Assembly (NCBI GenBank): GCA_965262725.1
Contig: OZ253555.1
Span: 2,304,001 to 2,368,000, forward strand
Origin: Dehalococcoidia bacterium
GTDB taxonomy: Bacteria > Chloroflexota > Dehalococcoidia > UBA2979
Length of the DNA stretch: 64,000 nt
Direction of reading: 5' to 3'
Shown here: one piece after another, positions 37,497 through 61,353 of the stretch
Numbering within the stretch: the first letter of the stretch is position 1
Layout of the letters: each line of letters opens with the position of its first letter
Position numbers and translations under genes: made by a program
Notes under the pieces: model-generated
What the model was told of the DNA's origin: nothing
The model's database searches: none
Seen by the model: only the letters and a program-made list of their open reading frames with translations

Positions 37497-38831
37497 CTAG
37501 CTCGTCGCCAGGAGGCGCAGGGCGGTCGCCTCCGCAAGGATCGCCCGCTTCAGCTCCCCGAGATCCTGGCTCTCATCGGGCCCGTGGACGGCGCTTCCCG
37601 GATCCCCGACCCCGGTAAGGAGAATCTCGGCATGCGGGTGGGAGGCCGCGAGCCCGGCCACGAGCGGGATGGAGCCTCCGATGCCGACCTCGACCGCCGG
37701 CCGGCCCCAGGCCTCGGCAAGCCCTCGCCGGAAGGCGGCATACGCCGGCCCGGTCGCATCGAGGCGGAATGGGGCACCGCGCGCACCCTCCGTGACCACC
37801 ACCTCCACGCCCCACGGCGCGTTGGACTCCAGGTGCCTCCTGAGCGCCCGCATCGCCCTCCCGGGCTCGTCGCCCGGCGCGAGGCGGACGCTCACCTTCG
37901 CCGCCGCCGCTGGCACGAGCTGGTTGATGGCGCCCGCGGTGCGCGGGGCGTCCACCGCCAGCACGGAGACGGCCGGGCTCATCCAGAGACGCTGCGTCAC
38001 GCTGCCCGTCCCCAGCAGCTCGACGCCGGCGCCCACGCCGGCCTGGAGGCGGAGCTCCGCCTCCTCCACATCCATCGACGGCGCCGGGCCCGTGATCAGC
38101 CCCTCCACCGCGGGAGAGCCGTCTCCGTGGTGCAGCGTCGCGAGCAGGCGCGCCAGGGCCGTGAGTGCGTCGGGCACGGGTCCGCCGAAGAGTCCGCTGT
38201 GGACCCCGGCCGCGAGCACCCGCACCTCGACCAGGCAGTCGACGATGCCCCGCAGCGAGGTGGTGAGGGCCGGCTCGCCGACCCGCCAGTTCAGGGAATC
38301 GGCGACCACGACCACGTCGGCCTCGAGGCGGTCCCCGTATCTCTGGAGAAACGCCTCGAGGTGGGGCGAGCCGATCTCTTCCTCCCCCTCGACGAGAACC
38401 TTCAGGCTCACCGGGGGCCGGCGTCCGATGGCGCGGATCGCCCCGAGGTGCGTCGCGAGGCCCGCCTTGTCGTCCGATGCGCCACGCCCGTAGAGGCGGC
38501 CGGCGCGCTCCTCGGGGCTGAAGGGCGGGCTCGTCCATGAACCCTCGTCCCCCGGGGGCTGCACGTCGTAGTGGGCGTACAGCAGAACCACCGGGGCGTC
38601 GTCCGGCCCCGCAAGCTCTCCGAAGACGGCGGGCGGGGCGTCAGCGAACTCCCAGAGTTCGACGGTGTCGAGCCCGGCCTCGCCGAGGAGCACCGCCGTC
38701 AGCTCCGCGCCGTCACGCAGGGGGGCTTGATCGAACCCCGCGCCGCTCACCGAGGGAATCTGAACGAGCCGGGCGAGCGCCTCCTGGATCAGTCCGAAGT
38801 CGCGATCGACGGTGCGGGAGAGGTCGCTCAT
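37497..38831 (-). CDS. M20/M25/M40 family dipeptidase
   Basis: YAHYDVQP, LYGRGASDDK, EGEEEIGS, HSGLFGG, GGSIP, HGPDES. Confidence 0.93.
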   Translation of the reverse strand: MSDLSRTVDRDFGLIQEALARLVQIPSVSGAGFDQAPLRDGAELTAVLLGEAGLDTVELWEFADAPPAVFGELAGPDDAPVVLLYAHYDVQPPGDEGSWTSPPFSPEERAGRLYGRGASDDKAGLATHLGAIRAIGRRPPVSLKVLVEGEEEIGSPHLEAFLQRYGDRLEADVVVVADSLNWRVGEPALTTSLRGIVDCLVEVRVLAAGVHSGLFGGPVPDALTALARLLATLHHGDGSPAVEGLITGPAPSMDVEEAELRLQAGVGAGVELLGTGSVTQRLWMSPAVSVLAVDAPRTAGAINQLVPAAAAKVSVRLAPGDEPGRAMRALRRHLESNAPWGVEVVVTEGARGAPFRLDATGPAYAAFRRGLAEAWGRPAVEVGIGGSIPLVAGLAASHPHAEILLTGVGDPGSAVHGPDESQDLGELKRAILAEATALRLLATS

Positions 38832-38952
38832 GGCATGGATTCTCGCAGCGTCGGCGACGCGGGCCCCACCGTCACGCGACCGCCCAAGGGTGGCCGGCCG
38901 CAACCGGAGCGGACGGGTCGACGCGGGCGCGTGGCCCGTCACCCGGCGATGC

Positions 38953-38999
38953 TGGTGCCCCCAGGGGGACTCGAACCCCCGTTTCCACCTTGAGAGGGT
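38953..38999 (-). other. 3' half of tRNA-Glu(CTC), the att site of an integrated element
   Basis: ACC-CTCTCAA-GGTGGAAAC-GGGGGTTCGAGTCCCCC-TGGGGGCACCA: anticodon loop, T arm, 3' acceptor strand and CCA are present; D arm and 5' acceptor strand are absent. Confidence 0.85.
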
Positions 39000-39123
39000 A
39001 CCCAGGCCGGTCCCGGCCTGTCGCTTCTGGTCCCTTCGCGAGCCATTTCGTACCTAGCAATAAGAGATTATGACAAGTTATGTCATCGTTCGTGACCCCC
39101 CGTCCCATGCCGTACCACCGAAC

Positions 39124-39148
39124 ATGTCCCCAAGATGTCCCCAAGATG
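39124..39148. repeat. Tandem 11-bp direct repeat, candidate integrase arm site
   Basis: ATGTCCCCAAG ATGTCCCCAAG ATG, about 125 bp inside the att core. Confidence 0.5.
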
Positions 39149-39464
39149 GACGACGCGGGCGCCGGTGAGATCTGGATGATCACCCGCTCTGTCCTGGTGC
39201 GCGATGCCGAGGGCGTTGTCCTCATCATCACCACCGACCTGCCCGTGGTCTCGCGAACGGGGTTCGGTCAGTACGCATACGCACGGACGCGCAGGTGTGC
39301 GCACCGGCGAAGGGGACCATGAGCGACGCGAGAGCCCGGGATCACGTGGCGAGGTCACCATCTGCCACTGGACGGCGATCGGCATGAATGTTCAGCTGTG
39401 CGCAACGATGGGTTGTCCATCGAGAAGCTGCGCCCCCAGCGGCGGTTATTGCGCGCCAACTGCT

Positions 39465-39684
39465 GCACACCCGACGCTACCGACCGCAGACGAACGGCAA
39501 GGCCGAGCGCTTCATCCAGATCCTGCAGAACGAGTGGGCCTACGCCCGCCCATACCGCTCCAACGCGGAACGGATCCACGAACTCCCGCGCTGGCTCTAC
39601 CGCTACGATCACCGCCGACCGCACGGCGGCGTCGGCGGGGCTGTCCCCGCCTTACGCCTGTACACAACGCCCCTGGGAACTACA
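39465..39684 (+). mobile_element. IS481-family transposase remnant (3' end with right terminus)
   Basis: RYRPQTNGKAERFIQILQNEWAYARPY...RRPHGG; ends ...AACTACA followed by GCTAG. Confidence 0.8.
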
Positions 39685-39685
39685 G

Positions 39686-40225
39686 CTAGCCGCGCTGGAT
39701 GACGCCGCAGGCGACGCGGTCGCCGGCCCCGGCGGCCTCGCCGTAGCTATCGGGGTTGGCGTGGACGATGATCGCGGATCCGTCGTCGTCGAACAGGGAG
39801 TGGTCGGCGCCCTCGTCCAGGGTGACGGCATCGCTGAAGTAGTCGGCGCGGGCGGCGCCGTCGGCGCCGCCGTGGATGTTCGGCAGGTCGCCGGCGTGCG
39901 CGCCGTCCTCGTGCAGGAAGCCGTGGCCAGAGCTGCCGGGGTTGAAGTGGTCGCCGGCCGCCGCGAAGTCCGGGGTGCAGGCGCCGACGGCGTGGATGTG
40001 GAAGCCGTGCGCGCCGGGCGAGAGCCCGCTCACGTCAGCCGAGACCAGCACGCCGTGGGGGGCCTGCGTGAGCGTCACCGTGCCCATCGATGCGCCGTCT
40101 GGTCCGGTCAGGGTCGCCGAGGCGGTCGCGCCTATGCCTTCCGGCGCCGCATCGCCGCCGCAAGCCGCCAGCGCCAGTGCCGCAAACAGTGCCGCTGCAG
40201 CGAGGGATGCCAGGCGCAACTTCAT
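39686..40225 (-). CDS. sodC: Cu/Zn superoxide dismutase, lipoprotein
   Basis: Lipobox LAAC; HGFHIH, AGDHFNP, HAGDLPN, IIVHANPD, AGDRVACGVI. Confidence 0.93.
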   Translation of the reverse strand: MKLRLASLAAAALFAALALAACGGDAAPEGIGATASATLTGPDGASMGTVTLTQAPHGVLVSADVSGLSPGAHGFHIHAVGACTPDFAAAGDHFNPGSSGHGFLHEDGAHAGDLPNIHGGADGAARADYFSDAVTLDEGADHSLFDDDGSAIIVHANPDSYGEAAGAGDRVACGVIQRG

Positions 40226-40398
40226 GATCGGAAACCCCCATCCGCACGCGAACTATCGCGGCGATCCTCGGCTGGGGGCGGCCTACCAGCAAACGCCGGC
40301 ACACCCACCCTCCAGATGTCGACGGCCCCGGGCGAACCCCGGGGCGGTCGACAGTGACAGTGCGCCGCTGCAGCGGGAGGACAGCCGCCCGGGCGGAG

Positions 40399-43300
40399 CT
40401 AGCCGCCCGCCGCGTCGTCCCGCCCCGGCCCGGCTGCGGGCGGCCGGTCGCTCCTCGCCACCAGGGGGGTCATCGGGCTCAGGCCGCCGGCGTGGAGCGC
40501 GACGAACGACCGGTTCACGAACTCGGGGGCACCGATGATGTAGGGGAGCCAGGCGCCGTCCTCGAGGGCGTAGAGCGTCGCGACGCCGAGGCTTCGGGCG
40601 CAGTCATCGAGCTCCTCCACGCCGCCCCCGCTGTAGACGACGATGCTGAAGCCTGAGGCGACCTCGCCGCGCAGGCAGCCGGTCGAGCCCTGCGCGAGGG
40701 GAGCCTCCGGGGCCGGGTCCCCGCTGGCAGGTCCGCTGCTGCCGGCGATCAGCGCGGTGACGGAGGGGACTCCGTCGGCGAACAGCTCGCCGAAGGCGCG
40801 GTTGACGAACGCGGGGGCCCCGATGATGTAGGGGACCCAGGCGCCGTTGTCGAGGGCATAGAACCTCGCGACGTGGCGGCTCTTAGCGCACTCCTCCAGC
40901 TCCTCGATGCTGCCGCCCTCGAAGAAGACGAGGCTGAAGCCGACGGCGACCGCGCCGCTCAGGCAGTGCGCCCACCCTTCATCGGTCTCGCCCACTCGCA
41001 CCAGGTAGACCGTCGTGCGGCTGCCGTCCTCAGATGTCACCGTGACCGTGATCTCGGGACCGCCCTCGACGGAGACCTGGTGGCCCGCGGCCTCGGGGTC
41101 GGCGTCCGGGGGGTCGACGGCGACCCTCGCGCGTCGCTGCGCGGCCCCGGCCTCCACGGTGGCCTGCGTGACGCCCTCTGCGACCGTCCCCTCGTACTCC
41201 ACCCGCCCCGGCTCGAAGTCGCCGATCTCCACGCCGCTGAGGCTCAGGGAGGCGAGGCGGGCGTCGATCGCGTCGGGCATGTTGTAGGTGTAGACCTTGT
41301 CGTCGCTCTCGTCGGCGACGTACATGACGTCGCCGTCCGACCAGAGGCCGCGCGGGCTGTTGTTGCTGGCGCGGCTCAGCAGCGTGAAGTCCTCGTCCGA
41401 GATGCGTTCGAGCGGGGTCGGCTCGGCGTCCTCCGCCGCGGGCGCGGCCGGCCGCGCCGGCAGGCGGTAGGCGATGAGCCGCTTCAGGCGGTCGTCCGAC
41501 ACCCAGACCGTGGTCCGGTCGGACCAGATGCCGTGGGGAACGTCGTTGGCGGGGTCGAGCCCGTACTCGGCGAGCAACTCGCCAGTGGCGAGGTCGTAGG
41601 CGAAGAGGCCGTCCTTCCCGCCGTCGAGCACCCACATCGTCTCGTCGTCGGACCAGATGCCGCGGGCGTCGCTGTTGCGGGCGGCGAGCGCGAGCTCACG
41701 CTCCTCCTGGCGCTCGCCCGTCATGAGGTGGTAGGCGAAGAGGCGCTCCTGGCCGCTGTCCGACACCCACGCGGTCACCTCGTCCGACCAGACGCCGCGC
41801 GGGGCGCGGTTTGTCTCATGCAGCGCGAACTCGCGCTCCTCGACGCGCTCGCCCGTCGCGAGCTCGTAGGCGTAGACGGCGTCGTCTGAGCCGGAACCGT
41901 TCTCCAGGATCCAGAGCGTCGTGGCGTCGGACCAGAGGCCGGAGGGGGTGTTGTGGCCGCCGTCGAGCTCCTCGATGTCCCGCGTGACCGTCCACTCGAA
42001 GTCCTCGTCACTGGGGGTGGGGCCGGACGACCCGCCTCCGCCTCCGCCTCCGCCTCCGCCGAAGCTGGGGCCCCCTCCTCCGCCCGGCGGGGTTGGCGCA
42101 GCGCTGGTGACCCTGATCGTCACGTCGATCGTCGCCGTGCCGCCGTTGCCGTCGTTCGCGTCGACAATCACCGCGTAGCTCTCCTGGAACGCCGGATCGA
42201 GCACGGCGTTCGGAGCCACCGTGATCTGGCCGGTGTGCTCGGCGATCGCGAACTCCGGCGGGCCGAATACCTGGTACGTGAGCATATCGGCGTCGACGTC
42301 CGTTGCCGCGACGCGGGCGCCGACCCTGGTACCGGCTGACGCGCCCGGCGCGACGGTGCGGGTGGTGGTCGCCGACGGGAACGTCGGGGCGTCGTTCACC
42401 GCTCCGATGTCGACATCGACGGCCGCCCTGGCGGTCAAACCCTTGGAATCTCTCACCTCGTACATCAAGCTGTCTCCGCCCACGTAGTCCTTCCTGGGCG
42501 TGTACGCGACTCTTTGATCACTCTCGACTGTCGCCGTGCCGCTGGGAGGTCTGACAATGTGCACCGTCATGGCGTCGCCATCGTCCGGGTCGAAGTCGTT
42601 ACTCAGGACGTCGATCATGACCCGCTTGTCCTCGAGCGTGCTGACCTGGTCGGTGTCGGCCCTCGGCTGCTCGTTGACGTCGTTCACGGTGACGGTGACC
42701 ATGATCGTGGCGTCGACCGCCGTGCTGATGTCGCCCCGCGCATTCTTCCCGTCGCTGACCTGGACGGTGACCGTGCGGCTCTCCGCGGCTTCGTGGTCGA
42801 GCGCGTCCTTCGTGCGCAGCTGGCCCGTCCCGGCATCAACGCTGAAGGCGGCGCCGCTCTCAGCGATGGAGTAGGTCAGGGTGTCGCCCTCTTCGTCAGT
42901 TGCCGCGACGGGCGCGCCGACTGCCCGGCCCGGCGGCGTGTTCTCGTCGACCGAGCGCAGGCCGGTCTCCGTCGAGGGGAACCGGGGGCGCTGGTTGCGC
43001 CGCAGCACGGCCGTGCCCGACCACGCGCCCGCGCCCTCGCTGTTGGCGGCCCGCACCTCGATGTCGTAGTCGAACTCGTTGTCGATCGAGGAGACGGTGT
43101 GCTCCAGGGCGCCGTCGCCGGTGTTCCAGGCAGTCTCGACATCCCAGTTCGAGTCGGCCCGGTCGGTCTCATCCGCCTCAATGTAGCGTACGTCGTACCT
43201 GGTGATCTCGGCGCCGCCGTTGCGGGCCGGAGCGCTCCACGAGACCGTGAACTCCCCATCTCCGGCAACGACGCTGTCGATGGCGGGAGCGCCGGGCTCG

Positions 43301-46143
43301 ACGGTCATGGTTTGCCCCTGTGCGACCTCGGACCATGGTCCCGCGCCGGCGCTGTTGACCGCGCGGACCTGCACGTCGTAGCCGACATCCAGGGTCAGGC
43401 CGGACAGCTCGTAGACGAGGTCGCCGGCGCTCCAGATCCGCATCTTCGGCGTCCAGTGCTCGTCCTCCCTGTCCGTTGCGTCGGTGCGGATGTAGCGCAG
43501 GTCGTAGCTCGTGATCGCGGAGGCGCCGATGTCCTCGGGCGCCTCCCAGCCGATGGTGAGGTAGGTGTCGCCCGGCCCGACGGAGGCGATCGCGGGATGG
43601 CGGGGCTTCAGGCCATGGCCGCGGATCGTCAGGCTCCAGCCCGCCAGCGTTCCGTCGTCTGGCAGGCTCGGATCCTTCACCGTCAGCGTCCATGTACCCT
43701 CGGGGTCCTCACCGAGATGACGCGCGGAGCCGAGGTCGATCGGGCTTCGCAGTTCCTGCGGAAGCAGCAACTGCCAGATGTCCCCGGCTGTCCCGGCCAG
43801 GAGCCTGGAGCTGGCTCCCGATGGCGCGATCAGGTCGATCGTCAGTTCCCTGAACTTGTCGTGGTCGATGTCGAGGTTGACGGTGACGTACTCGATGAAC
43901 TCGATGTGGTCACCCGCGATAGCGAGAGTCGTCGTGAAGGTGTTGTTGTCGAGCGACTGGCTCATGGGTGCAGACGTGATCGTCAGCGTTCGGAGGGCGG
44001 GCAGTCCGGGCCATGTCTGCGCCAGCGCTACGGCGGCGCCGGCATCGATCACCCCGAAGCCGTAGGTGTGGTTGTAGTTGTACCGTGCGCTGGTCGAGCC
44101 GTACCGCAGCGCTCCCACTTCCCAGCCACTGTGCGAGGTGTGGTTCTTGCGCGCCGTGGCCGCGATGATGAGCCTGGCGTCGCGCCAGGTCAGCTCAAGG
44201 TTGGCGGCCCGCATGAGCGCTACGACTCCGGACACTAGGGGAGCCGATGCCGAGGTGCCCCCGAACGCATCGGTGTAACCGCCGTTCGTGGTCGTCGCGA
44301 TCTGCGGCAAGTCGCTGTATCGCTCATTCGACGGGGCACAAACCCAGAGGTTGGGTCCCCTCACGGAGCGCGGGCTGCGCACATCCCTGTAGTTGACGGC
44401 GCAGACCGTGACCACGCCGTAGTGGCTGTTGATTTCGCTGAGGTTGGAATAGTCGTTGTCGCCGCCGTTGCCGGCACCGAAGACGTACACCGTCCCCTTT
44501 CCGCCGAAGCCCTCGGAGAGCCCGCGCTCGATTGCGCTGGGCCAGGCTGCCCCGGTCAGCTTCGGAGCCCCGTCGCCCCCGAACCCCCAGCTGTTGTTGC
44601 TCACGGCAGTCTGCGCCAGATGCAGCAGCGCGGCCTCGGCCGCCAGCGCCTGGTTGCGCGCCACGTCACTCGAGAACGCTTCGACCACGTTGGAGCCGTA
44701 GATGGAGGATCGAGGCGCGACCCCGACCATGCCGAAGCCGTTGTCCCGCGCCGCGATCAGACCTGCCACGCTCGTACCGTGGCTCTGGCGTTGTCGGAAA
44801 AAGGTTCGGGCAGGCGTGTGGTTCTGGTCTGGCAGGATGTTGTCCCGCAGGTCCGGGTGATCGAGCTGGAACCCGCCGTCGATGACCGCGACCGTCACCC
44901 CCGCGCCCTTGGTGATTTCCCAGGCCGCCTCCACGTTGATGTCCTGGCGCGCGCCCCCGGCTTGCAGGTTCCCCGTGTTCTTGAGGTGCCACTGGCAGCC
45001 CGAGAGCGGCTCGCCCAGGAGCGAGGGCAGCTTTGTGCAGCGATCCTGCAGATCCTGGTTGCCGGCCGAGAAGCCCACCTTCAGGGTGTACCGGCCGCCT
45101 GAGCGCGCCGCCGCCTCCGCCACGTGAACCACGTACGTCCCGGGTGTCAGGAACGCGGTCGCTTCGAAGGCGACATGATCCTTGTTGATCTCCGACCAGT
45201 AGGATTGCGGGAGGACGTACGTGTCGACCTCCTGGTCGCTGCTGTTGCGGATGGTCGGCGTCAGGGCGAGCAACGCGCCCTGGATCGCGATCGCGCGGAG
45301 CTTCACCCACGAATCCCCCGCCACGGTGAGCTGGAAGTAGTCGTCCGCGCTGGTCGCGTCCACGCGGCCCCCGTATACGCCACCGAGACTGACAGGCGTC
45401 GCCGTGGCGGCCGTGCTGCCCGGATCGTGCACAGCCCGAATGTGGAGGGAGTACGAGCCGGTGGGCCGGCCGTTGCGGGTGCTGCTCGCAACCCTGAGGT
45501 AATAGGTCCCTGCGTTCACCGACCGACGGATGGCGAAGTCCAGCCCCACCTGCGGCTCGGCGTAGCTGTTCGATGTGATCGTTCGGCCGTTGCTGTCCTG
45601 CAGCGAGCCCTCCGTATCGACGCCCCCGGTGGTGTAGAACCAGAGATCGACCGCCTCCGTCAGCACGAGTTTGAACAGGTCCACATCCCCCTCGATATGG
45701 ATCTGAGACGGGATGGTCGAATTGAGCTGCACCGGCGTCGCCTCGGTGCGCCCGGAACTGTGGTCGTGGGGCTGTTCCGTGACGGTCCGGGAGCCGCTCG
45801 CGCCGTCGGTGTTGACCGCCCGCACCTGCACGTCGTACCGGGCGTTGTCGCCCAGGCCTGGGATGACGTGCTGGAGCGTGCCCGACGGTGAGATGCGGCT
45901 CACCACGGTCCAGCTGCCGTCCGACTTGTCGCTGGCGCTGCTCAGGATGTAACGCACGTCGTAGGAGGTGATGGCGGAGCCGCCGGTGTTGGCGGGTGCG
46001 GCCCACGAGACGGTGAGGGAGCCGCCGCCGGCGGTCAGCGAGGTGGCGGTCGGCGCGCCCGGCGCCGTCTGCGCAGCCGCGCGTTCAGCGGGGGCCGTGA
46101 CGCAGAGCGCGACAACGATCGCCAGCAGCGCCGCCCACCTCAC
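40399..46143 (-). CDS. Giant secreted kexin/furin-like S8 protease (1914 aa): FN3, PPC-like domains, S8, P domain, FN3 x2, cadherin/Ig x3, poly-Gly, beta-propeller, beta-sandwich, two C-terminal repeats
   Basis: Signal peptide; catalytic triad VAVIDGG, SHGTSVAG, FGGTSASAP; oxyanion GAGNG; LTWRD and YGFGVIDA; P domain GEDPEGTWTLTVKD; FN3 YDVQVRAVN. Confidence 0.9.
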   Translation of the reverse strand: MRWAALLAIVVALCVTAPAERAAAQTAPGAPTATSLTAGGGSLTVSWAAPANTGGSAITSYDVRYILSSASDKSDGSWTVVSRISPSGTLQHVIPGLGDNARYDVQVRAVNTDGASGSRTVTEQPHDHSSGRTEATPVQLNSTIPSQIHIEGDVDLFKLVLTEAVDLWFYTTGGVDTEGSLQDSNGRTITSNSYAEPQVGLDFAIRRSVNAGTYYLRVASSTRNGRPTGSYSLHIRAVHDPGSTAATATPVSLGGVYGGRVDATSADDYFQLTVAGDSWVKLRAIAIQGALLALTPTIRNSSDQEVDTYVLPQSYWSEINKDHVAFEATAFLTPGTYVVHVAEAAARSGGRYTLKVGFSAGNQDLQDRCTKLPSLLGEPLSGCQWHLKNTGNLQAGGARQDINVEAAWEITKGAGVTVAVIDGGFQLDHPDLRDNILPDQNHTPARTFFRQRQSHGTSVAGLIAARDNGFGMVGVAPRSSIYGSNVVEAFSSDVARNQALAAEAALLHLAQTAVSNNSWGFGGDGAPKLTGAAWPSAIERGLSEGFGGKGTVYVFGAGNGGDNDYSNLSEINSHYGVVTVCAVNYRDVRSPRSVRGPNLWVCAPSNERYSDLPQIATTTNGGYTDAFGGTSASAPLVSGVVALMRAANLELTWRDARLIIAATARKNHTSHSGWEVGALRYGSTSARYNYNHTYGFGVIDAGAAVALAQTWPGLPALRTLTITSAPMSQSLDNNTFTTTLAIAGDHIEFIEYVTVNLDIDHDKFRELTIDLIAPSGASSRLLAGTAGDIWQLLLPQELRSPIDLGSARHLGEDPEGTWTLTVKDPSLPDDGTLAGWSLTIRGHGLKPRHPAIASVGPGDTYLTIGWEAPEDIGASAITSYDLRYIRTDATDREDEHWTPKMRIWSAGDLVYELSGLTLDVGYDVQVRAVNSAGAGPWSEVAQGQTMTVEPGAPAIDSVVAGDGEFTVSWSAPARNGGAEITRYDVRYIEADETDRADSNWDVETAWNTGDGALEHTVSSIDNEFDYDIEVRAANSEGAGAWSGTAVLRRNQRPRFPSTETGLRSVDENTPPGRAVGAPVAATDEEGDTLTYSIAESGAAFSVDAGTGQLRTKDALDHEAAESRTVTVQVSDGKNARGDISTAVDATIMVTVTVNDVNEQPRADTDQVSTLEDKRVMIDVLSNDFDPDDGDAMTVHIVRPPSGTATVESDQRVAYTPRKDYVGGDSLMYEVRDSKGLTARAAVDVDIGAVNDAPTFPSATTTRTVAPGASAGTRVGARVAATDVDADMLTYQVFGPPEFAIAEHTGQITVAPNAVLDPAFQESYAVIVDANDGNGGTATIDVTIRVTSAAPTPPGGGGGPSFGGGGGGGGGGSSGPTPSDEDFEWTVTRDIEELDGGHNTPSGLWSDATTLWILENGSGSDDAVYAYELATGERVEEREFALHETNRAPRGVWSDEVTAWVSDSGQERLFAYHLMTGERQEERELALAARNSDARGIWSDDETMWVLDGGKDGLFAYDLATGELLAEYGLDPANDVPHGIWSDRTTVWVSDDRLKRLIAYRLPARPAAPAAEDAEPTPLERISDEDFTLLSRASNNSPRGLWSDGDVMYVADESDDKVYTYNMPDAIDARLASLSLSGVEIGDFEPGRVEYEGTVAEGVTQATVEAGAAQRRARVAVDPPDADPEAAGHQVSVEGGPEITVTVTSEDGSRTTVYLVRVGETDEGWAHCLSGAVAVGFSLVFFEGGSIEELEECAKSRHVARFYALDNGAWVPYIIGAPAFVNRAFGELFADGVPSVTALIAGSSGPASGDPAPEAPLAQGSTGCLRGEVASGFSIVVYSGGGVEELDDCARSLGVATLYALEDGAWLPYIIGAPEFVNRSFVALHAGGLSPMTPLVARSDRPPAAGPGRDDAAGG

Positions 46144-46373
46144 CGGGCAGGGACATCCGCGCGCTCACACGGGCCGCGATGCAGGCGCCGCCGCCCCGCG
46201 CGGGCGGTCTCAAGACCGCCCACCTGATCACCACCGACCACGTCATTGAGTTCGGAGTCGAGGTCGAACGCGGGCGGGCTCGGCGTCCCAGCCAGGGGCT
46301 CGACCTGCTCGTTGCCGCTGACGTCGCCGTCGGGTGCCAAGACAGGGGCCTTCAACTAGTGGCTGCGCCACTC

Positions 46374-46573
46374 GATTCTGCCATTCCCCTACGGTGATGA
46401 GATAGGTGAAAACGATTAGTCTGGACTAGGCGTAGTGCTCGCTTAGGAATCGGCACTTGGCCTATTGTGGTTGGTACTTTGTGCTCTCGTATCTCATGAG
46501 CAGTCGATGTAAGTTGTCACTGGTAAGAGTCGCGAGATTGCACGGCTCTCGGTGCGGTATTCGATCTGTCATG
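46374..46573. repeat. Conserved ~200-bp low-GC noncoding element, copy A
   Basis: Colinear with 55384-55582: 125/177 identities ungapped by hand count, then 12/13 after a 1-nt gap. Confidence 0.85.
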
Positions 46574-46632
46574 TCAAGGCGCATCCAAGCAGGTAACTCG
46601 GGACCGGGAGACGTGGCTTGCTGAAGACTGGC

Positions 46633-47838
46633 ATGGAAGCCATAGAGAAGTGGGTGACGCCAGGCACTTTGACCGACCCGGACGTCGTTCTGCATGCGGC
46701 AAGGATCTCTGTCTGGGGTCGCTGGTTCGTCTGGCTGGTCGGTGTCTTCCTGCTGGCCTACCGGCCGGGCTTCTGGTACCCCGACGACATCGGATTCCTG
46801 TCCATACCTGTGCTGCTGGGGATCTTCAACGGCCTTGTGCACCATCGGCTCCTGACGAACAGGCCGGTGACGTGGCGCTGGATGCTCTTCCTCAGCGCCA
46901 CGGAGATCGCCCTGATCACCGCCGGCATCGTCATCGGCGGCGGATTCAGGAGCTTCATCTTCCTGGCCTACTATCCGTCCCTCGCCGTCTTTGCCGTGGT
47001 CTTCTCGTCCCATTCGCTCAGTCTCGCTTGGACGACGGCGGTCGCCGTTGCTTACGCTGCCGTGTGCGTGCGGGTGGGCTCCGGTCTCGACCTCGATGCC
47101 GGCAACGAGAAGGTGCTGATCGCCAGGCTGGCGATGATGTACACCATCGTGCTGGGCATCAGTCTCATCATCCGGTTCGAACGCATCAGGTGGCAGACGT
47201 CGGTGGCAAGGGAGCGGGGGCTGCGGCGGGAACGCATCGAGCTCTCGCAGACGATTCACGACACGACCGCGCAGACCGCCTACATGGTTGACCTGGGGAT
47301 TCACAGGGCCCGGGAACTGGCCGGCGAGTCGAACGAGGCCCTGGTGGCCGCCCTGGATGCAACGTCCGCGCTGACACGGTCGGCCATGTGGGAGGTGAGG
47401 GGCCCCATCGACGCGGGCCACATCCTGGAGGGCAGGGAACTGGGACGGGTCTTGTGGTCGCACTGTGCGACCTTTGAAAAGATCACGGGCGTCCCTGCCG
47501 AGATGTCGCAGTCGGGAACCGAGCCCCCTCTGACCACGGAGACCCGAACCCGTCTCTTCTCCATCGCGCACAACGCGCTGACCAACGCCTTCCTGCACGC
47601 CCGGCCCGGGAGAGTCGAGGTCAGGTTGGGCTTCGAGGCCGACCAGATCAGGCTCTCCGTCTCCGACGATGGAGTGGGTCTTCCCGACGGCTACGCCGAA
47701 CGCGGGCGGGGCTTCAGCGGGATGAGGTCGGACGCCGAGCAGGTGGGTGGAGTGCTCAGCGTGGAGAGCGGCGAGGGGGCAGGAGGAACGACCATCTCCT
47801 GCGTGGTCCCACATGTCGCGGATCAAAGAGGAGGCTGA
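46633..47838 (+). CDS. Membrane sensor histidine kinase (HisKA_3, NarX/DesK-like)
   Basis: 5-6 N-terminal TMs; H-box ERIELSQTIHDTTAQ; NALTNAFLHA, DDGVG, GRGFSGMR. Confidence 0.88.
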   Translation: MEAIEKWVTPGTLTDPDVVLHAARISVWGRWFVWLVGVFLLAYRPGFWYPDDIGFLSIPVLLGIFNGLVHHRLLTNRPVTWRWMLFLSATEIALITAGIVIGGGFRSFIFLAYYPSLAVFAVVFSSHSLSLAWTTAVAVAYAAVCVRVGSGLDLDAGNEKVLIARLAMMYTIVLGISLIIRFERIRWQTSVARERGLRRERIELSQTIHDTTAQTAYMVDLGIHRARELAGESNEALVAALDATSALTRSAMWEVRGPIDAGHILEGRELGRVLWSHCATFEKITGVPAEMSQSGTEPPLTTETRTRLFSIAHNALTNAFLHARPGRVEVRLGFEADQIRLSVSDDGVGLPDGYAERGRGFSGMRSDAEQVGGVLSVESGEGAGGTTISCVVPHVADQRGG

Positions 47839-47839
47839 G

Positions 47840-48541
47840 ATGTCTACAGCAGATCGGACACGGGTGATGGTGGTGGACGACCATCCGCTCATGCGGAACG
47901 CCTTGCGGGACGTGCTGGAAGCATCGGGCCGCTTCGAGGTGGTGGGAGAGGCTGGAGATGGAGAGGAGGCGGTGAGGGCCGCCGACGAGCTGGAACCGGA
48001 GGTCATCGTCATGGATGTGATCATGCCGGGCAAGGACGGCATCGATGCCTGCCGGGAGATCATGGAGCTCTTGCCCGGCACGCGGGTCATGATGCTGACG
48101 GCTTCGACCGAAGAGGATGCGGTGGTAGAGGCGGTTGCCGCCGGCGCGACGGGCTACCTTCAGAAGCATTCACGACCGGAGGAGTTGGTGGCAATCCTTC
48201 TGGATGTGGCCGAGGGTCGGCTACGCTTTCCTGACATCGCAGTGAGGCGGGTCTTCGCGATGATCCGCGGCGAGCGCAGGCTCGTGGCCCCTCAGCCTTC
48301 GGTCAAGCTGACGGCGCTGGAACTGGAGACCCTGACGCTGTTCGCCCGCGGCACGTCTTACACCGCAATCGCCGCGGCGAGGGAGAAGAGCAAGGTGACC
48401 GTCCGCAATACCCTCTACCGCATCCAGGACAAGCTGGGCATCGGGACGAAACAGGAACTCGTGATCTGGGCTGTGCGGCACGGCCTGGTGGACGACGTCG
48501 TGGTGGGTGTTGACTCCGAGCCAGTGCCGGAGGGGCAGTGA
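47840..48541 (+). CDS. NarL/LuxR family response regulator
   Basis: VVDDHPLMR, MDVIMPGKDG, GATGYLQK; C-terminal HTH LTALELETL...TVRNTLYRIQDKL. Confidence 0.92.
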   Translation: MSTADRTRVMVVDDHPLMRNALRDVLEASGRFEVVGEAGDGEEAVRAADELEPEVIVMDVIMPGKDGIDACREIMELLPGTRVMMLTASTEEDAVVEAVAAGATGYLQKHSRPEELVAILLDVAEGRLRFPDIAVRRVFAMIRGERRLVAPQPSVKLTALELETLTLFARGTSYTAIAAAREKSKVTVRNTLYRIQDKLGIGTKQELVIWAVRHGLVDDVVVGVDSEPVPEGQ

Positions 48542-48709
48542 ACCAGCCGGCGTCCAGCGGGGCAGATCCCTCGTGTGCGGTTCCGCAGCGGCCTCTCGTG
48601 AGCGTGAGCGTGCGGGGTCTGAGGAGGCCATGCCGCTGAGCCTGAGGACGCTGGCCGAGACCCGCGGCCGGCCGGCGCTGTGCGCTGCTGTCAGCGCTGG
48701 CCGACGCGC

Positions 48710-49162
48710 CTACCGGCCACTCTCCTTCATCGACCCCTCCATGTGCAGGTCCTCGAGGTCGAAGAGCGTGCAGACCACCTCGCGATCGCCAGCGTCCTCC
48801 CACGAGTCACGGCTGGGGAAGAGCGTGTGAATGTCAAGCAGCGGGTTGGCGTAGGTTTCCCCCACGTACTCGTCGAAGTCGTCGAGGCACGGGCTGAACG
48901 CGACGGACTCGAGCTGTGTGGACCCTGGGAACCGCGCATCGTTGGGCGCCTCGACATCGATAGCCGCGAATACCTCGTACCGGTGCGGCTCGTCGCAGTC
49001 GACGAGTCCGACGTTCTCGACCTCGTCCCCGCCCCCTGGTTGAAGCAGTCTCCCACCCTTCAACGAGAACACGTGTCCCTCGCCGGAGCACGCGACAATC
49101 AAGACGGTGAGCACCGCCAGAGCCGCGATCGGTCCGCCAGGAGCACGGATCGCGACCACCAC
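48710..49162 (-). CDS. Septum-formation-family lipoprotein containing a compensated frameshift segment
   Basis: Lipobox IVAC; VDCDEPHRYEVF, C..FDEYVG, PSRDSW..GDREVVC; the family motif VGDCFN lies in the neighbouring frame at 49039-49056. Confidence 0.75.
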   Translation of the reverse strand: MVVAIRAPGGPIAALAVLTVLIVACSGEGHVFSLKGGRLLQPGGGDEVENVGLVDCDEPHRYEVFAAIDVEAPNDARFPGSTQLESVAFSPCLDDFDEYVGETYANPLLDIHTLFPSRDSWEDAGDREVVCTLFDLEDLHMEGSMKESGR

Positions 49163-49343
49163 CAGCGGGCCTCGCTGGCCTCGTCGCGCGGGGTGTCGGA
49201 TTCGTACTGGACTGAGTGGTACGTCATCGGCAGTTCCGCTGCGGTAAGCGGTCCCTCAGCGTCACACCGCGCGGGGGCGCCGGCATCGCGGCCCACCTCA
49301 CCGTGGAAGGACATCCGTCCGCTCCGGTCCGGTCCGGGCGGCT

Positions 49344-50606
49344 CTACTCGAGGCTGATGGGCACGATCGCCTGCTCGACGATCGCGCCGCCGACATACGC
49401 CCAGATGCCCACGTGACCGTTCGTCACGTCCCCGTCGGCGTTCCAGTCGAGGGTCGTCGCCGCGCCCTCGTAGTTGACGTCGTTCCCGTCGCGCACGGCC
49501 TCGAGGCCCCCCTCGATGCCCGCGGCTCCGGGGAGCACGGCGAGGCCGGGAGGCGAGGCCACGCTCACCAGCGCATCGCGGAGGGCGGCTCCCTCGAGGG
49601 AGCCGGCGGCCTCCGCGGCGAGCGCGATCGCGATCGTGGCGTCGTAGGCCTCCCGCACGAACGGGAGGGACGGCAGGTCGCCGAAGGCGGCGATGTAGGC
49701 CTGGTTCCACGCCTGCGAGGCCTCTGTGTCGGGGGAGGCGGGAGCGGTGCCGGGCGAGCCCTCGAGGAACTCCGCTCCGATCGCCTCGACGAGATCCTCG
49801 CTCTTCGTGCCGTCGACGAAGACGAACCTCTCGAAGAGACCGCTCTCGAGCGCCTCGCGGATGTAGACCTTCGCCTGCGCGGGGAAGCTGATCGCGACCA
49901 GGTGCTGGGCGCCTCCGCGGGCCGCCTGCTGCAGCTCGGCGAGGTAGGAAGGCTGTCCGTCCTCGTGCGACACCAACGTCGCCGTGCCGGTGAAGCTCGC
50001 CGCGAATCCGTCGGCGAGGCCCTGCCCGTAGGCGTCGTTGAGGTAGAGCACGGCGACGTTGTCGATGCCGATCGTGCTCACCATCTGGGCAAGCACGGGC
50101 GCCTGTGCCGCGTCGGAGATCGTGCTCCGGAAGAGGAAGCCGTCGTCCTCGGCCACCGTCACGGAGGGAGAGGTGGCCGACGGCGAGATCGTGGGCACGC
50201 CGGCCGCGCCCGTCACGCTCTCCGCGACGGCGATCGTCACCGAACTCGAGAGCGGCCCGACGATCGCGTGCACGCCCTCGACCTCCACGAGGCGCCGCGC
50301 CTCTTCGACGCCGATGTTCGTATCGACCTGCGTGTCGCCGGTGACGAGGACGACGTTGCGGCCGTTCACGCCGCCGGCGTCGTTGACGTGCTGGATCGCG
50401 AGCTCGACGGCCATCTGGAGCGCGGGCCCGAACTCGGCCAGCGGACCGGTGAAATCGCCGAGGAAGCCGATCTTCAGCTCTTCGCCTTCCTGCTCGTCGC
50501 TTTCCTCGCCGCAGGCCGGGGCCAGCGCCATGGCCATCGCGGCCGCGGCAACGAGCAGGACGGCCGCGATCCGCGCGAGTCCGCGCCGGCTGCGAATGTC
50601 GAGCAT
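49344..50606 (-). CDS. ABC transporter substrate-binding lipoprotein (branched-chain amino acid/LivJ type)
   Basis: Lipobox LAPAC; KIGFLGDFTGPLA, NDAGGVNG, ISPSATSP, FRSTISD, NDAYGQGL. Confidence 0.88.
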   Translation of the reverse strand: MLDIRSRRGLARIAAVLLVAAAAMAMALAPACGEESDEQEGEELKIGFLGDFTGPLAEFGPALQMAVELAIQHVNDAGGVNGRNVVLVTGDTQVDTNIGVEEARRLVEVEGVHAIVGPLSSSVTIAVAESVTGAAGVPTISPSATSPSVTVAEDDGFLFRSTISDAAQAPVLAQMVSTIGIDNVAVLYLNDAYGQGLADGFAASFTGTATLVSHEDGQPSYLAELQQAARGGAQHLVAISFPAQAKVYIREALESGLFERFVFVDGTKSEDLVEAIGAEFLEGSPGTAPASPDTEASQAWNQAYIAAFGDLPSLPFVREAYDATIAIALAAEAAGSLEGAALRDALVSVASPPGLAVLPGAAGIEGGLEAVRDGNDVNYEGAATTLDWNADGDVTNGHVGIWAYVGGAIVEQAIVPISLE

Positions 50607-50893
50607 CGAAGGCTCCCCCCTGATAGACCGGGAAGCGACTCGGGAACGCTCCCGCAGTCTTCGACCGTTCTGATGCTACGTGCGCCGCGAGGGCACCGGC
50701 AGGTCGCATCACACCAATCTGCCATGGCGGAAGTGATCGGCGATGTGGGTACAGGTGAACGCTGCCAGGTCTTGCGGATGGCCCAGTGCTCCGCATGGCG
50801 CTCGAGCGACCCAGCCGTCGTGCTGGCCGGGCAGCAGCTCCGGCGGTCAGGCGCGAGCGGCCGATGCAGGCGCCGCACCCCGCACCCGGGGAG

Positions 50894-54829
<3,936 letters not shown>

Positions 54830-55383
54830 CCCATAGCCTCCGCGGTCGCGATGATTGATGGATGGGGCGCGAGCCCGGCCGGACGGGGAATCCGCCCGTG
54901 ACGCTCGACCGGCCTCAATCGCCAAGCGGGATCGCCAGATGCCAGCGAGGGATAGAGCTCGAGAGAACCTGCCCCCTCGTTACTGGGGCGCGCAGCTCAG
55001 ATGGACCGCTTCTGGGAAGTGGCGGGAACCGCGGAGCGTGCCGTGCCTCTGTCCTCGGGGACACCGACGTACGCGGCAATCTCCCACGGCGGATGAGGTC
55101 ATGCTCGAGCCCTTCACGTCCATCTACCAGCAAGGCTCCGGCGAACTCATCAGCCCCCCGTTCGACGCGGCCCCCGAACATGGTGTGCTCCGGCATCAGG
55201 AGGTGTTCTCCGCGTGCAGGAACGTGCGTCCGATGGCGTGCGCGATCATCCACCGCCACCTCGGCAGGCCGAGGCGTTGCCCCGTTCGGCCACATAGCTG
55301 GTCCGCATCTGCTCCCGTTTCACCCACGGCGCGCGGCCCGACGCACCCCGGTAGGTTGTCCGCCATCGCAGCTGTCGACGTGT

Positions 55384-55582
55384 GATTCTGACACTCCCCT
55401 GCTGTGATGAAATAGGTGCTAGTGACTACTCTGGGCGTGAACCTTTGCTCGCCCATGAGTCCACACTCGGCCTATTTGTCTTGATACAATGTGCTCGCGT
55501 CTCACATGAACAAGTGATGCAAGTGTTCAGTGGTAAACGCCGCGGGATTGCGCGGCTATACAGGGGGTGTCGGTCTGTCATG
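55384..55582. repeat. Conserved ~200-bp low-GC noncoding element, copy B
   Basis: Homologous to 46374-46573 (offset 9010); contains TGaTACAAT extended -10 at 55482-55490. Confidence 0.85.
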
Positions 55583-55917
55583 GTCGCGGCGTCGATGCTC
55601 TCACATGAAGGGCGCGGTCACGGGAGGACTGGCGTGTTCAGGGCAGAACGCCGTCACGCTGCGGGCTCGGTTTCCGACCGGAGACTGCGACGCAGTGGAG
55701 GGTGGGTGTGCGGGCGGAGGTGGCACGCAGGGCCCCGCAGCCGACTGCCGCAGGTCCTCGCACAGAGTGGAAGGTGCCTCGCTGACTCTGGGATAATGGT
55801 GTCTGACGGCCTTCCGCCCCTGACGCCGCTGACCGCCAGGAGCGGCGCTCCGCCGGCCACACCGGGGCGGGAGCGCCGCAGGACCGCATTCCGGGATTCA
55901 CGGAGAGGGAGGATGTG

Positions 55918-56175
55918 ATGCCTACATTCACGAAGATGGACCCTGCTGATGTCGCCGTCGGGCGCGGGCGCGCCGCCGCGAAGATGCGGCAGCCATACAT
56001 CGAGGCGCTGAACGCGGGCGACGCAGGGAGCGTGGAGCTTGAGCGCGGCGAGAAGCCGGCGACCGTGAAGCGGCTGCTTCAGGAAGCGGCACGTCATGCG
56101 AACGTCCGCATCCGCTCCTCGTGGGCTGACAGCCAGCAGCGCATGCTGGTGTGGAAGAAGGTTGGCACGCGCTAG
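55918..56175 (+). CDS. Small basic hypothetical protein, possibly nucleic-acid binding (85 aa)
   Basis: Strong RBS GGAGGA; GATAAT -10 about 120 bp upstream; basic amphipathic helix KPATVKRLLQEAARH. Confidence 0.7.
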   Translation: MPTFTKMDPADVAVGRGRAAAKMRQPYIEALNAGDAGSVELERGEKPATVKRLLQEAARHANVRIRSSWADSQQRMLVWKKVGTR

Positions 56176-56182
56176 GCCCGTG

Positions 56183-56314
56183 CATCTCGCGGTGGGTCGC
56201 GCCTTCTGGAACCGGTTCAGCGACATTCGGATGGTGGCGGTGAACCTCCATCTGAAGTTTCCGGTCTCGGTGGTCGGCGGGCTCCTGAGCGTACCGACGG
56301 TGGAGTTCCCGGGG
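56183..56314 (+). pseudogene. Possible fragment of a PD-(D/E)XK restriction endonuclease
   Basis: RAFWNRFSDIRMVAVNLHLKFPVSVVGGLL resembles the NR...NxHxxxP segment of type II REase-like proteins; no start codon. Confidence 0.3.
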
Positions 56315-56539
56315 CTGCGCCGAAGTCAACGCTTCCGTTGGTCACCAGGGGGCATCGAGCGCCTCCCCGAGCAGGCGAGCGGCGCACGGAGCATCTCCTG
56401 GAATCCGTGGCATCGTCTTCGATCCGTATGCCGGCCGGCTTGATCCGGGGATACCTCCGGTCGGCAGCGGTGTGCGCTGGGACGAGTAGTGACGGGGCCC
56501 CGCGCTCGAAGCCGGGGCGAGTGCTCAAGGGGATCGGTC

Positions 56540-57256
56540 ATGAACGCGCGCGTTGCCGACACCGCCCGGTTCTACGACCTTCTCGACCGCCTGGCAGTCC
56601 GCGTCGGCGGCCTCCGCGTGCTGGCCGACTGCACCGGCAGGATGAGATGGCCGCAGCGGGGGGTCTACTTCTTCTACGAGGCCGGCGAAACGCGCTCCGG
56701 CTCGGGCAGCGGACGCCGGGTCGTGCGTGTCGGGACGCACGCGCTGGTGAGCGGCTCCCGGGCCACCCTCTGGCGCCGTCTGTCGTAGCACCGGGGGTCG
56801 GCCCGGTCCCGGGGCGGCAACCACCGTGGATCGATCTTCCGCCTGCTCGTGGGCGCCGCCCTGGCCCGGCAGGGGGATCTCCCCCTCCCGCCCTCCTGGG
56901 GCCGTCGCGGACGGCGGCCCGGCCTGGACCGGGCCGCGCTCAAGCGGGACGAGTCGGGCCTTGAGGCGCTGGTCAGTCGCAGGATCGGGGCCATGCCGTT
57001 CCTCTGGCTGGGCGTGGACGACGCGCCGGGGCCCGGCAGCCAACGCACCCTGATCGAACGCAACGCGATCGCACTGCTCAGCGGCGACGCGGAGTCGGCA
57101 CTCGACCCACCGTCGCCGGGCTGGCTCGGACTCCACAGCGATCGCGAGCCCGTGCGCCGCTCCGGCCTCTGGAACAACCGCCATACGGACGAAAGCTACG
57201 ACCCGGCGTTCCTCGACGTGCTCGAGGAGCGGGTCGAGGAGATTCAACCGCCGTAG
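56540..57256 (+). pseudogene. GIY-YIG-like nuclease interrupted by an in-frame TAG
   Basis: RGVYFFYE...VVRVGTH...LWRRLS*HRG...NHRGSIFRLLVG...IERNAIALL...SGLWN; both halves in the same frame, stop at 56786-56788. Confidence 0.7.
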
Positions 57257-57482
57257 CAAGCGGTAACACCGACCGACTGCCCACTATCCGGTCACAAGCG
57301 TCCCGGGCGCCCGACCAGCATGGGACGTAGCGCCACGCAGGAGGACGACGGACGACCACTGACTCCCGCTCGACTTCGGCAAGCTGACCAGCGACGGATG
57401 CTGCGTGTCGCTAGTAGCTGTGCCAGTAGAGGTCCAGGTGTCCCTGCGGGTCATATCCAGTGTCTCCCCAGCACACCGCCTA

Positions 57483-57687
57483 GTAGCGTCCCAAGAAGTG
57501 GTGTCACAGGCTGGGAGACGGTCTCCGCAGGGGATCTACAACCCACCATGCCGCCGTGCAGGTGGAGGTAAGAGACCACCGCGCCATCCTTCACGGAGGA
57601 CGACGGTGGTCACAGAAGGCGTGGACGTGTTGGAGCTGCTCCGCAAGCAGGCATCGGGAGCTGACCTCGATTGCCTGCGCGAAGCGG
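57483..57687 (+). mobile_element. IS256-family remnant (left end plus about 27 transposase codons)
   Basis: End-like GCGTCCCAAGAAGTGGTGT; GGAGGA RBS then MVTEGVDVLELLRKQASGADLDCLREA. Confidence 0.55.
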
Positions 57688-57800
57688 CCGTGCTCGCCAC
57701 CAGTTGGGAAACGCTGGCTGGCGACGGCCGGACCTGGGTCTTCAACCTGCGCGAGGCCAGTGGTCGAACGGCGGGAAGTTCACGGCCGAGGACGGGAGCG
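57688..57800 (+). pseudogene. Fragment of a family-5 (OppA/DppA) solute-binding protein
   Basis: LATSWETLAGDGRTWVFNLRE then, frameshifted, QWSNGGKFTAED; matches LAxSW...DGxTWxFxLR...WSDGxxFTAED. Confidence 0.6.
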
Positions 57801-58208
57801 AACTTCCCGTTCACGCTGGAGTTCCAGGCACCTACGCGATCTCCGACAGCTCATGACCGGCGACGGTAGCACCGGGGTGCACCGGCAACGTTCCAGTGCC
57901 GGAGCGTTTCGGGGCGGGCGCCTGTCCGGCCAGCCGACGACCTCGTCGCCGTCTGCCGCAGCGTGTTCGTCGACTACGCGCGGGTTCCGTCATCGGGTCT
58001 CCGCGCCCGGAGGAGTCGCTGTCCCAGCGATGTGTGGCGTGGCCCGCAGGTTCCCGATCGCGACCTCGGCCCGCTGCCCCAGCGGTGACCCAGCCCGGCG
58101 TGGCGCGCCGGAAGCGAGTCTCGTCCCAAGCACATCCCCAGGGCATGGAGACACCCGAAGCCAGCCTGAACGCCGAGCCGAGAGCTACTCGATCGGTGCG
58201 GGCCCGAA

Positions 58209-60379: not shown

Positions 60380-60643
60380 TGCACTACCGGTTCCTGCCGG
60401 GATGCGTCCGATAGACTAGGTGGGGAGAGGCGCTACCGCTTCTTCTTCTACGCGAGCGATCGGGAGGAACCGCCGCACGTCCACGTTGAGCGCGACCGGC
60501 AGACGGCCAAGTTCTGGCTGCGGCCGGTCAGGCTCCAACGCAGCGGAGGGCTGAGGCCGTCCGAGATACGGCGCATCACGAGGACCGTCGTCGACAACGA
60601 GACGCTGTTCATGGAGGCGTGGAATGAGCGTTTCAATGCTTGA
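60379..60643 (+). pseudogene. DUF4160 (DhiT-like) putative toxin with damaged 5' end
   Basis: YRFFFYASDREEPPHVHV...AKFWL...AWNERF in frame 60431-60643; no in-frame start codon upstream. Confidence 0.75.
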
Positions 60644-60968: not shown

Positions 60969-60988
60969 CTGGCGAGAAGAGAGGGGCG

Positions 60989-61330: not shown

Positions 61331-61353
61331 GTCTCGCCCGCTTCGCCGACGAC

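Follow-up and report, generated by a model that had tools for sequence, protein, structure and literature searches.

Two giant genes in a 64,000-nt stretch of a Dehalococcoidia genome encode exported proteins in which unrelated N-terminal passengers are joined, through a glycine hinge, to one constant tail of about 540 residues. This stretch, hereafter the window, covers positions 2,304,001-2,368,000 of a single 3.67-Mb contig, and coordinates given below are window positions unless a contig position is stated. The two genes are P0001 (40399..46143, minus strand) and P0002 (50894..54829, minus strand). Their tail is part of a very large, lineage-restricted family of exported giant proteins, and it closes with two copies of a small domain marked by two cysteines (the Cys domain), which is without a described family or fold in the copies of Pfam, NCBIfam and PDB that we used. 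Because the Cys domain is common to giant surface proteins and to peptidoglycan-acting enzymes, where it occurs at any position and often beside a bacterial SH3 domain, we propose that the tandem terminal Cys domains act as a non-covalent cell-wall anchor, a reading to which we assign a probability of roughly 0.55.

A constant tail behind unrelated passengers

P0001 is 1914 residues long, with a signal-peptide-like stretch at its N-terminus. Its Pfam matches run from fn3 and PPC through Peptidase_S8 (residues 413-677; 44113..44907, minus strand; 125.7 bits) and a following P_proprotein domain (43624-43893, minus strand; 54.6 bits) to two further fn3 domains, Cadherin and Big_9, after which come the glycine hinge and the tail. 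The peptidase and the P-domain both score above cut-off and the Asp, His and Ser subtilase motifs are readable in the translation (VAVIDGG, SHGTSVAG and GGTSASAP), identifying P0001 as a kexin-like subtilase. Assignment as a mycosin equivalog was rejected at 121.5 bits against a cut-off of 278.75. The open reading frame of P0002 is listed from a TTG at 54925. The GTG at 54829 is the likelier start because a GGAGG box lies 7 nt before it and a signal-peptide-like stretch comes after it. The P0002 passenger consists of a choice-of-anchor R domain (NF041539, 66.1 bits, cut-off 30; residues 81-235; 54221..54685, minus strand) and a Pfam-matched array of three He_PIG repeats, Big_9 and Cadherin_5 (52568..54199, minus strand) that is also a repeat family at the DNA level. 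We take the choice-of-anchor R label, in NCBIfam naming, to denote domains seen with alternative C-terminal anchors, and have counted it in favour of the anchor proposal. The GC content of the window is high (approximately 0.65-0.76 per 2 kb; approximately 72% for the genome), and both genes have a third-position GC content (GC3) of 0.90 and the codon-position GC pattern of real genes here.

The hinge of P0001 (42031..42084, minus strand) reads as five glycines, PSF and ten glycines, and that of P0002 (52502..52567, minus strand) as 22 glycines. Pure short tandem repeats encode these hinges exactly at the boundary between passenger and tail: (GGCGGA)4 at 42031-42060 makes up part of the first, and (GGC)13 at 52527-52567, followed by mixed GGN codons, makes up the second. 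Both repeats should be expected to change in length by slippage.

Directly downstream of the glycine runs, a high-identity stretch begins at GPTPSD in both proteins. The tails (P0003, 40402-42027, from P0001; P0004, 50897-52510, from P0002) are 61% identical over their whole length. An AlphaFold2 model of the tail, built on 66 aligned sequences, has a mean per-residue confidence (pLDDT) of 79.4 and a predicted TM-score (pTM) of 0.57. It comprises a five-bladed propeller (approximately tail residues 28-249), a beta-sandwich (residues 258-345) and two domains of beta-alpha-beta-beta-alpha-beta order. The propeller is formed by NxxPxGxWSD blades and occupies 41272..42006 in P0001 and, with approximate bounds set by alignment to P0001, 51746..52486 in P0002 (both minus strand). 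Its Foldseek matches include the five-bladed glutaminyl cyclases 3mbr, 2iwa and 3nol (TM-score by target 0.66-0.70, 10-16% identity) and the NHL-derived Pizza6 proteins, and its sequence profile reaches Pizza6 at E 7.6e-11. Model, Foldseek and profile together place it in the NHL-type/five-bladed beta-propeller fold; the NHL repeat PF01436 itself gave no match in P0001 or P0002 in the Pfam scan at E ≤ 0.01. The sandwich of P0001 (40993..41256, minus strand) matches the cadherin-like family PF12733 with 36.8 bits, or 41.3 bits when the tail is scored alone, against a cut-off of 24.2. Its counterpart in P0002 (51470..51724, minus strand) scores 23.7 bits, just below cut-off, and aligns with it column for column. 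The Cys domains follow, at 40714..40980 and 40426..40692 in P0001 and at 51161..51427 and 50897..51142 in P0002 (all minus strand). The first P0001 copy shows the two cysteines and a GAPxFVN motif, and after its second copy P0002 ends in ...PLVGKSN. P0001 ends in ...RDDAAGG, and neither C-terminus contains a hydrophobic segment.

One fold match raises a different role for the tail. The archaeal surface-layer structure 1l0q, a YVTN propeller with PKD, ranks seventh in the Foldseek search, as might be expected if propeller-sandwich-Cys units joined into an S-layer-like lattice or multimer carrying the passengers. The great abundance of the tail family per genome would also suit self-assembly of this kind. 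However, 1l0q aligns with a low TM-score (0.24 by query and 0.32 by target) and many generic propellers score alike, and we consider tail-driven assembly quite improbable.

The Cys domain is an alpha/beta domain of 89 residues. Across 132 copies, two Cys, one Gly and one Phe are invariant and GAPxFVN is nearly so. Modelled alone by AlphaFold2 on these copies, it reaches a pLDDT of 93. Neither Foldseek against PDB (best E 0.38) nor VIA-align over 48,161 chains (best Z 4.0) returned a clear match. No Pfam family was found at E ≤ 10 for four tail copies or for 22 divergent copies described below; at this threshold the domain shows no membership of SLH, LysM, SH3b or CWB2. NCBIfam and the PDB sequences likewise gave no match. 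Look-alikes of the Cys region in the ESM Atlas score at best 0.90, to an unnamed 70-residue Chloroflexota cluster, and named clusters reach at most 0.80. The lack of a fold match does not prove that the fold is new.

Beyond the window, the genome yields 36 tail matches. A six-frame profile search found 37 stop-to-stop frames with at least one part of the module, of which 13 are genes with passengers and four encode a tail alone (496-568 residues); the remainder are fragments, several apparently split by insertions. Four of the 13 passengers pair an S8 subtilase with a P-domain and two are Spond_N/Calx-beta proteins, one of them also carrying an arylsulfotransferase-like domain. The others, one each, are a GSDH propeller with cadherins, a PKD array, a PPDK_N-like domain, a cadherin/Big_9 protein, a 7300-residue fn3_6/LapA/Calx-beta giant, the choice-of-anchor R protein and one protein without a Pfam match. 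The giant is an open frame of 7300 codons (G000:C1:1925848-1947747, contig positions) with cadherin, fn3_6, LapA, GBS104-like Ig and Calx-beta matches; it ends in propeller parts and two Cys domains, with no glycine run before them. Three other tail genes appear to be split inside the propeller, with gaps of approximately 0.8-1.2 kb (G000:C1 2404549-2410251, 2454554-2459412 and 1819753-1825264; loci L013 and L016), in what looks like insertion at similar places.

The family is far larger in public data. Among 8000 scored candidate proteins, 1292 match the tail at E ≤ 1e-3, and an exhaustive search of 1.84 billion representatives gave 4653 clusters at E ≤ 1e-3, 3065 at E ≤ 1e-10 and 1425 at E ≤ 1e-30. 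Architectures were counted in 258 fetched database proteins, 177 of which bear Cys domains. The order propeller-sandwich-Cys-Cys closes 165 of the 258, and in 167 of the 177 no more than 30 residues separate the last Cys domain from the C-terminus. A scan of one genome per species by peptide patterns returned 311 stretches, 290 of which encode a tail relative; the best 80 matches were kept and represent 79 distinct loci. All 79 come from metagenome-assembled genomes (MAGs) titled Dehalococcoidia, Tepidiformaceae, Chloroflexi or Dehalococcoidaceae, often with many loci per genome. A stop codon follows 500-560 residues after the start of the tail at 69 loci; nine loci are longer (609-853 residues, or no stop in the examined stretch) and one is shorter (425 residues). 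A run of at least five glycines stands just upstream of the tail in 140 of 162 database proteins, at 64 of the 79 loci and in 11 of the 13 own-genome genes. Among the genomes sampled, the distribution is narrow. The Cys-domain profile matches 20 of 301 sampled genomes of the class, including 15 of 16 in the family to which the window belongs and 3 of 17 and 1 of 17 in two others, with no match in the remaining families of that sample. A profile of the divergent copies was not found in 300 other sampled genomes of the phylum.

The last residue of the tail is often the same. Asn closes 43 of the 69 normal-length loci (...AN, ...GN or ...EN), after a short Pro/Gly/Ala-rich stretch, and is also the commonest last residue in the database set (56 of 156), as in P0002 (...KSN). 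A preferred terminal residue and a strict C-terminal position could mark the tail as a signal for export or sorting that some dedicated machinery recognises, like the C-terminal domain of type IX secretion or a sortase signal. Such a role is, however, very unlikely in our judgement. Known signals are much smaller than a tail of 540 residues and four folded domains; no transmembrane segment, LPXTG motif or beta-barrel is present in the tail, the NCBIfam sorting-signal models give no match to it, N-terminal signal peptides are already present, and a homologous domain stands internally or N-terminally in small enzymes.

Much of the first-pass annotation of the window is upheld by these results. 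It had described two proteins with unrelated N-terminal parts that become homologous from the poly-Gly run onward, as the alignment of the roughly 540-residue tails confirms, and had named their passengers as a kexin-like protease with FN3/cadherin and a choice-of-anchor-R-like domain with repeats, in agreement with the Pfam and NCBIfam matches. Its proposal of one constant C-terminal module that carries unrelated passengers behind a glycine hinge extends well past the original pair, to 13 genes in this genome and 4653 public clusters, and the C-terminal position is kept in all but ten of the 177 Cys-bearing proteins. It had also failed to recognise the module as any characterised domain. This stands for the Cys domain and not for the NHL-like propeller or the PF12733 sandwich.

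Relatives of the Cys domain in wall enzymes

A class-wide search also gave weaker matches in small frames. Eighteen such places, together with one in the genome of the window, were fetched and yielded 22 divergent copies of the Cys domain, carried by smaller exported proteins from genomes of the same family. The tail-type and divergent-type domains align in hhalign with a probability of 99.8% (E 2e-28, 83 columns). In a Pfam scan of 20 of these proteins, four have SH3_3, then the domain, then a Peptidase_S11 DD-carboxypeptidase. One DD-carboxypeptidase gene of this build lies in the same genome at contig positions 3,178,644-3,180,206 (L115:2145-3707), with SH3_3 and one divergent Cys-type domain before S11, and the architecture is kept in at least three other genera. 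Other carriers comprise one Polysacc_deac_1, one AMIN-like, two CAP and one matrixin protein, and SH3_3 occurs in eight of the 20 overall. By eye, a second carrier shows the polysaccharide-deacetylase motif ITFDDGP. A search of 5.8 billion proteins for longer carriers produced 41 matches, among them 13 with PF00768, ten with SH3_3 only, one with PF01522, two with PF00413 and five tail proteins.

The divergent domain may be N-terminal, internal or C-terminal in its carriers and thus fits a binding module rather than a terminal sorting signal. Sharing of one module between surface proteins and wall enzymes is the pattern by which LysM, SH3b, SLH and comparable modules came to be recognised. The genome has four PF00905 transpeptidase matches, and a Mur ligase is encoded in the window, so the means to make peptidoglycan are present. 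No SLH domain was found in this genome.

Location of the homologues in peptidoglycan enzymes also bears on a reading in which the polarity of the protein is reversed, with the tail as an outward-facing head that binds ligands or host matrix and the variable part as a stalk or second function. NHL-like and five-bladed propellers, the fold matches returned by Foldseek, commonly bind ligands, and 81 of the 258 fetched relatives have no Cys domain and many repeats of the propeller-sandwich unit, as in adhesins. Nevertheless, the N-terminus shows no membrane or wall anchor beyond a cleavable-looking signal peptide. The passengers are themselves adhesion-type or enzymatic parts, and the Cys domain has its homologues in peptidoglycan enzymes. 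We regard a binding head as unlikely.

Under the anchor proposal, an exported protein would consist of a signal peptide, a variable passenger (a protease, another enzyme or adhesion-type repeats), the glycine hinge and the constant tail of about 540 residues. The tandem Cys domains would bind the cell's own wall non-covalently, either peptidoglycan or a polymer attached to it. The propeller and sandwich would serve as a constant base or spacer, and the hinge would let the passenger move freely outside the cell.

Several observations weigh against wall anchoring. The genome has one sortase, so other anchoring routes exist. The argument for wall binding is one of domain co-occurrence, and among the partners CAP and matrixin give no indication of the wall. 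The cysteines occupy different positions in the two subtypes, before strand 1 and in helix 1 in the tail type and after helix 1 and at the end in the enzyme type, and the ligand may therefore differ too. In ten of the 177 Cys-bearing proteins, 31-408 residues follow the last Cys domain. One of the 79 loci, L047, has a tail that is clearly internal, and no other does: its four Cys domains are followed, with no intervening stop, by fn3 repeats. The 81 relatives without a Cys domain are propeller/sandwich arrays, and the propeller-sandwich unit therefore exists independently of Cys domains. Finally, the pTM of 0.57 leaves the inter-domain geometry of the tail model uncertain.

Passenger exchange, the upstream element and the two-component system

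A protein from a public metagenome assembly, P0019, bears on how passengers and tails are combined. Its tail is 84% identical to that of P0001, whose highest paralogue in the same genome reaches 68%. The identity is unevenly spread: inspection of the alignment puts it at approximately 70% in the first four blades and near 98% in approximately the last 305 residues. Homology between the two proteins begins at SGPTPSD, just past the hinge. The passenger of P0019 consists of Spond_N, Calx-beta and cadherin (precomputed Pfam matches) and shows only a weak cadherin-repeat likeness to the passenger of P0001. Such a mosaic testifies directly to recent recombination or gene conversion, within the tail as well as at its leading edge. 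In our reading these two processes, acting inside the tail and where it meets the passenger, generate new passenger/tail combinations, and the mosaic tail of P0019 shows a repertoire that is being reshuffled now. That the (GGC)n tract is itself the crossover site is a guess.

The genes for a histidine kinase (HisKA_3 and HATPase_c; 46618..47838, plus strand) and a NarL-type response regulator (Response_reg and GerE; 47840..48541, plus strand; start MSTADR) lie between the two giant genes. An AT-rich element of about 200 nt is found twice in the window, once between the divergently oriented P0001 and kinase genes (46365..46560, minus strand; GC 51.5%) and once upstream of the P0002 start (55378..55590, minus strand; GC 54%). 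The copies are 70.5% identical over 200 nt (71.3% over 174 nt), with E-values of 2e-19 and 7e-19 against the whole 3.67-Mb genome. Their edges are sharp, with unalignable flanks on both sides. The distance from element to start is unequal, approximately 220 nt for P0001 and 550 nt for P0002, and copy 1 ends 58 nt before the kinase gene. The first-pass annotation had correctly noted the two-component system and the element upstream of both genes in the same orientation. Its further suggestion that the element belongs to a family-wide system is not supported, since blastn finds only the two copies in this genome, with none at any other tail gene, and relatives searched lack it. A 35-nt core was absent from 98 other genomes of the family at up to three mismatches. 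A DNA search of the same 98 genomes gave no true match; as it failed to recover the 71% copy in the genome of the window as well, its sensitivity is low. Neither nhmmer nor blastn found the element at 18 loci with kinase homologues. The element is a feature of this one gene pair and not a part of the family, and most likely represents a promoter/operator region that the two genes share and have retained since a local duplication.

Some constraint on the element is plausible because it aligns while its flanks do not. We consider it possible, at somewhat less than even odds, that it is a working promoter/operator region through which the neighbouring NarL-type regulator controls the two genes of this pair together; otherwise it would be a relic of local duplication. 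Its sharp-edged identity, its AT-richness within a 72% GC genome and the 58-nt spacing of copy 1 from the kinase gene are all consistent with cis-regulation, as is the recurrence of the kinase pair near tail-family sequence described below. On the other side, just two copies exist anywhere searched, and the distances to the two starts differ. The tail DNA of both genes is 64-84% identical, so that an element identity of about 70% could be plain shared ancestry. Scans for sigma-70 promoters and terminators found none in either upstream region. An Rfam scan of 38000-58000 gave three matches, at E 0.33-0.95, far under gathering threshold and none on the element. The two-sequence consensus folds weakly on both strands (-20 and -18 kcal/mol per approximately 200 nt), and two sequences are too few to settle a structure. 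A separate 47-nt likeness between the P0001 start region and 49278-49324 was dropped as a single weak match on re-test (E 0.064).

The kinase-regulator pair recurs beside members of the tail family. All three kinase paralogues in this genome lie less than 5 kb from tail genes, and in other genomes each of the four loci retrieved has tail-family sequence at 0.6-5.2 kb from the pair: a tail gene in three of them and fn3/cadherin passenger-like sequence in the fourth (G082). This proximity is a hint, and no proof, that the pair is linked to tail genes, because tail genes are clustered and the kinase may lie near them by chance. The kinase family was found in only two of 21 genera, that of the window and one other (g19). 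In the smaller sample searched with the Cys-domain profile, all four g19 genomes have strong matches, and so do genomes of other genera. Kinases of species representatives are at most 62% identical to that of the window. In contigs of four public runs, the summed depth of the kinase-regulator stretch (46468-48523) and of the tail stretches is 10-40 times that of the passenger stretches, and the communities in those runs seem to hold many near-identical copies.

Two further genes lie between the giant genes, a Septum_form-family lipoprotein-like gene (48710..49162, minus strand), which is not part of the module, and a Peripla_BP_6 solute-binding protein gene (49344..50606, minus strand). Past the second giant gene, 56489-57256 holds two adjacent plus-strand frames of 99 and 135 residues and 55915-56175 a frame of 86 residues, with gene-like GC3 and no Pfam match. 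The region 60624-63416 encodes a DUF2442 protein, a HicB-like antitoxin, a short KAP-NTPase-like frame and a Fic/DOC protein. These genes and the lower GC content from approximately 42 kb onward suggest that the right third of the window is accessory DNA beside a housekeeping block at 1-39 kb.

Comparison with known systems

Each genome devotes tens of kilobases to proteins of the tail family, whose passengers include cadherin, fibronectin, spondin, Calx-beta and kexin-like parts, presumed to bring about contact with a host. A profile of the constant tail allows all such proteins to be identified and their passengers catalogued, and the tail suggests a testable mechanism for their retention at the cell. 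The Cys domain, small and well predicted with no described relative, could become a wall-labelling probe or display handle. The lineage is uncultured and, judging by bin names, probably of the sponge-symbiont type. A full-text literature search outside subscription journals returned general papers on adhesion domains of sponge symbionts and no description of the tail. Robbins et al. 2021 (PMC8163846) report that sponge-associated MAGs are enriched in cadherin and fibronectin III genes and that the latter reach especially high numbers in Actinobacteriota and Chloroflexota. These 'attachment' genes are of the same kind as the passengers described here, and the passages on them do not mention the constant tail or the Cys domain.

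Taken together, a tentative picture, which we hold as a possibility short of an even chance, is that a new wall-binding fold, a propeller-sandwich base and a hinge make up the main surface-display platform of a sponge-symbiont-type Dehalococcoidia lineage. Homology for passenger exchange would come from the common tail together with the (GGC)n tract that borders it, and a dedicated NarL-type two-component family would switch neighbouring members on and off.

Two familiar C-terminal systems were rejected for P0001 and P0002. Autotransporters (type V secretion) likewise combine a variable passenger with a constant C-terminal module. However, the tail model contains no C-terminal beta-barrel translocator and there is no Pfam autotransporter match. 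The two proteins were also rejected as sortase substrates, as their C-termini lack both LPXTG and a hydrophobic segment. The propeller is alike in fold to the glutaminyl cyclases and Pizza6, with 10-16% identity to the cyclases, and we claim no functional link.

The closest parallels are found in two other groups. The non-covalent wall modules of monoderms (SLH, CWB2, LysM, SH3b and GW repeats) also occur as tandem small domains at one end of unrelated exported proteins, and there too the same domain is found in surface proteins and in wall-modifying enzymes. Unlike these modules, to which no sequence or fold match was found, the Cys repeats accompany a fixed propeller and sandwich and a glycine hinge. 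Known choice-of-anchor proteins join a passenger to short sorting signals such as PEP-CTERM, LPXTG or the type IX domain. The P0002 passenger is itself a member of this group (NF041539 and kin), in which one passenger is seen with alternative C-terminal anchors, but here the partner is a folded tail of 540 residues. In its logic, the tail resembles both choice-of-anchor proteins and those anchored by SLH, LysM or SH3b, and it is a member of none of them.

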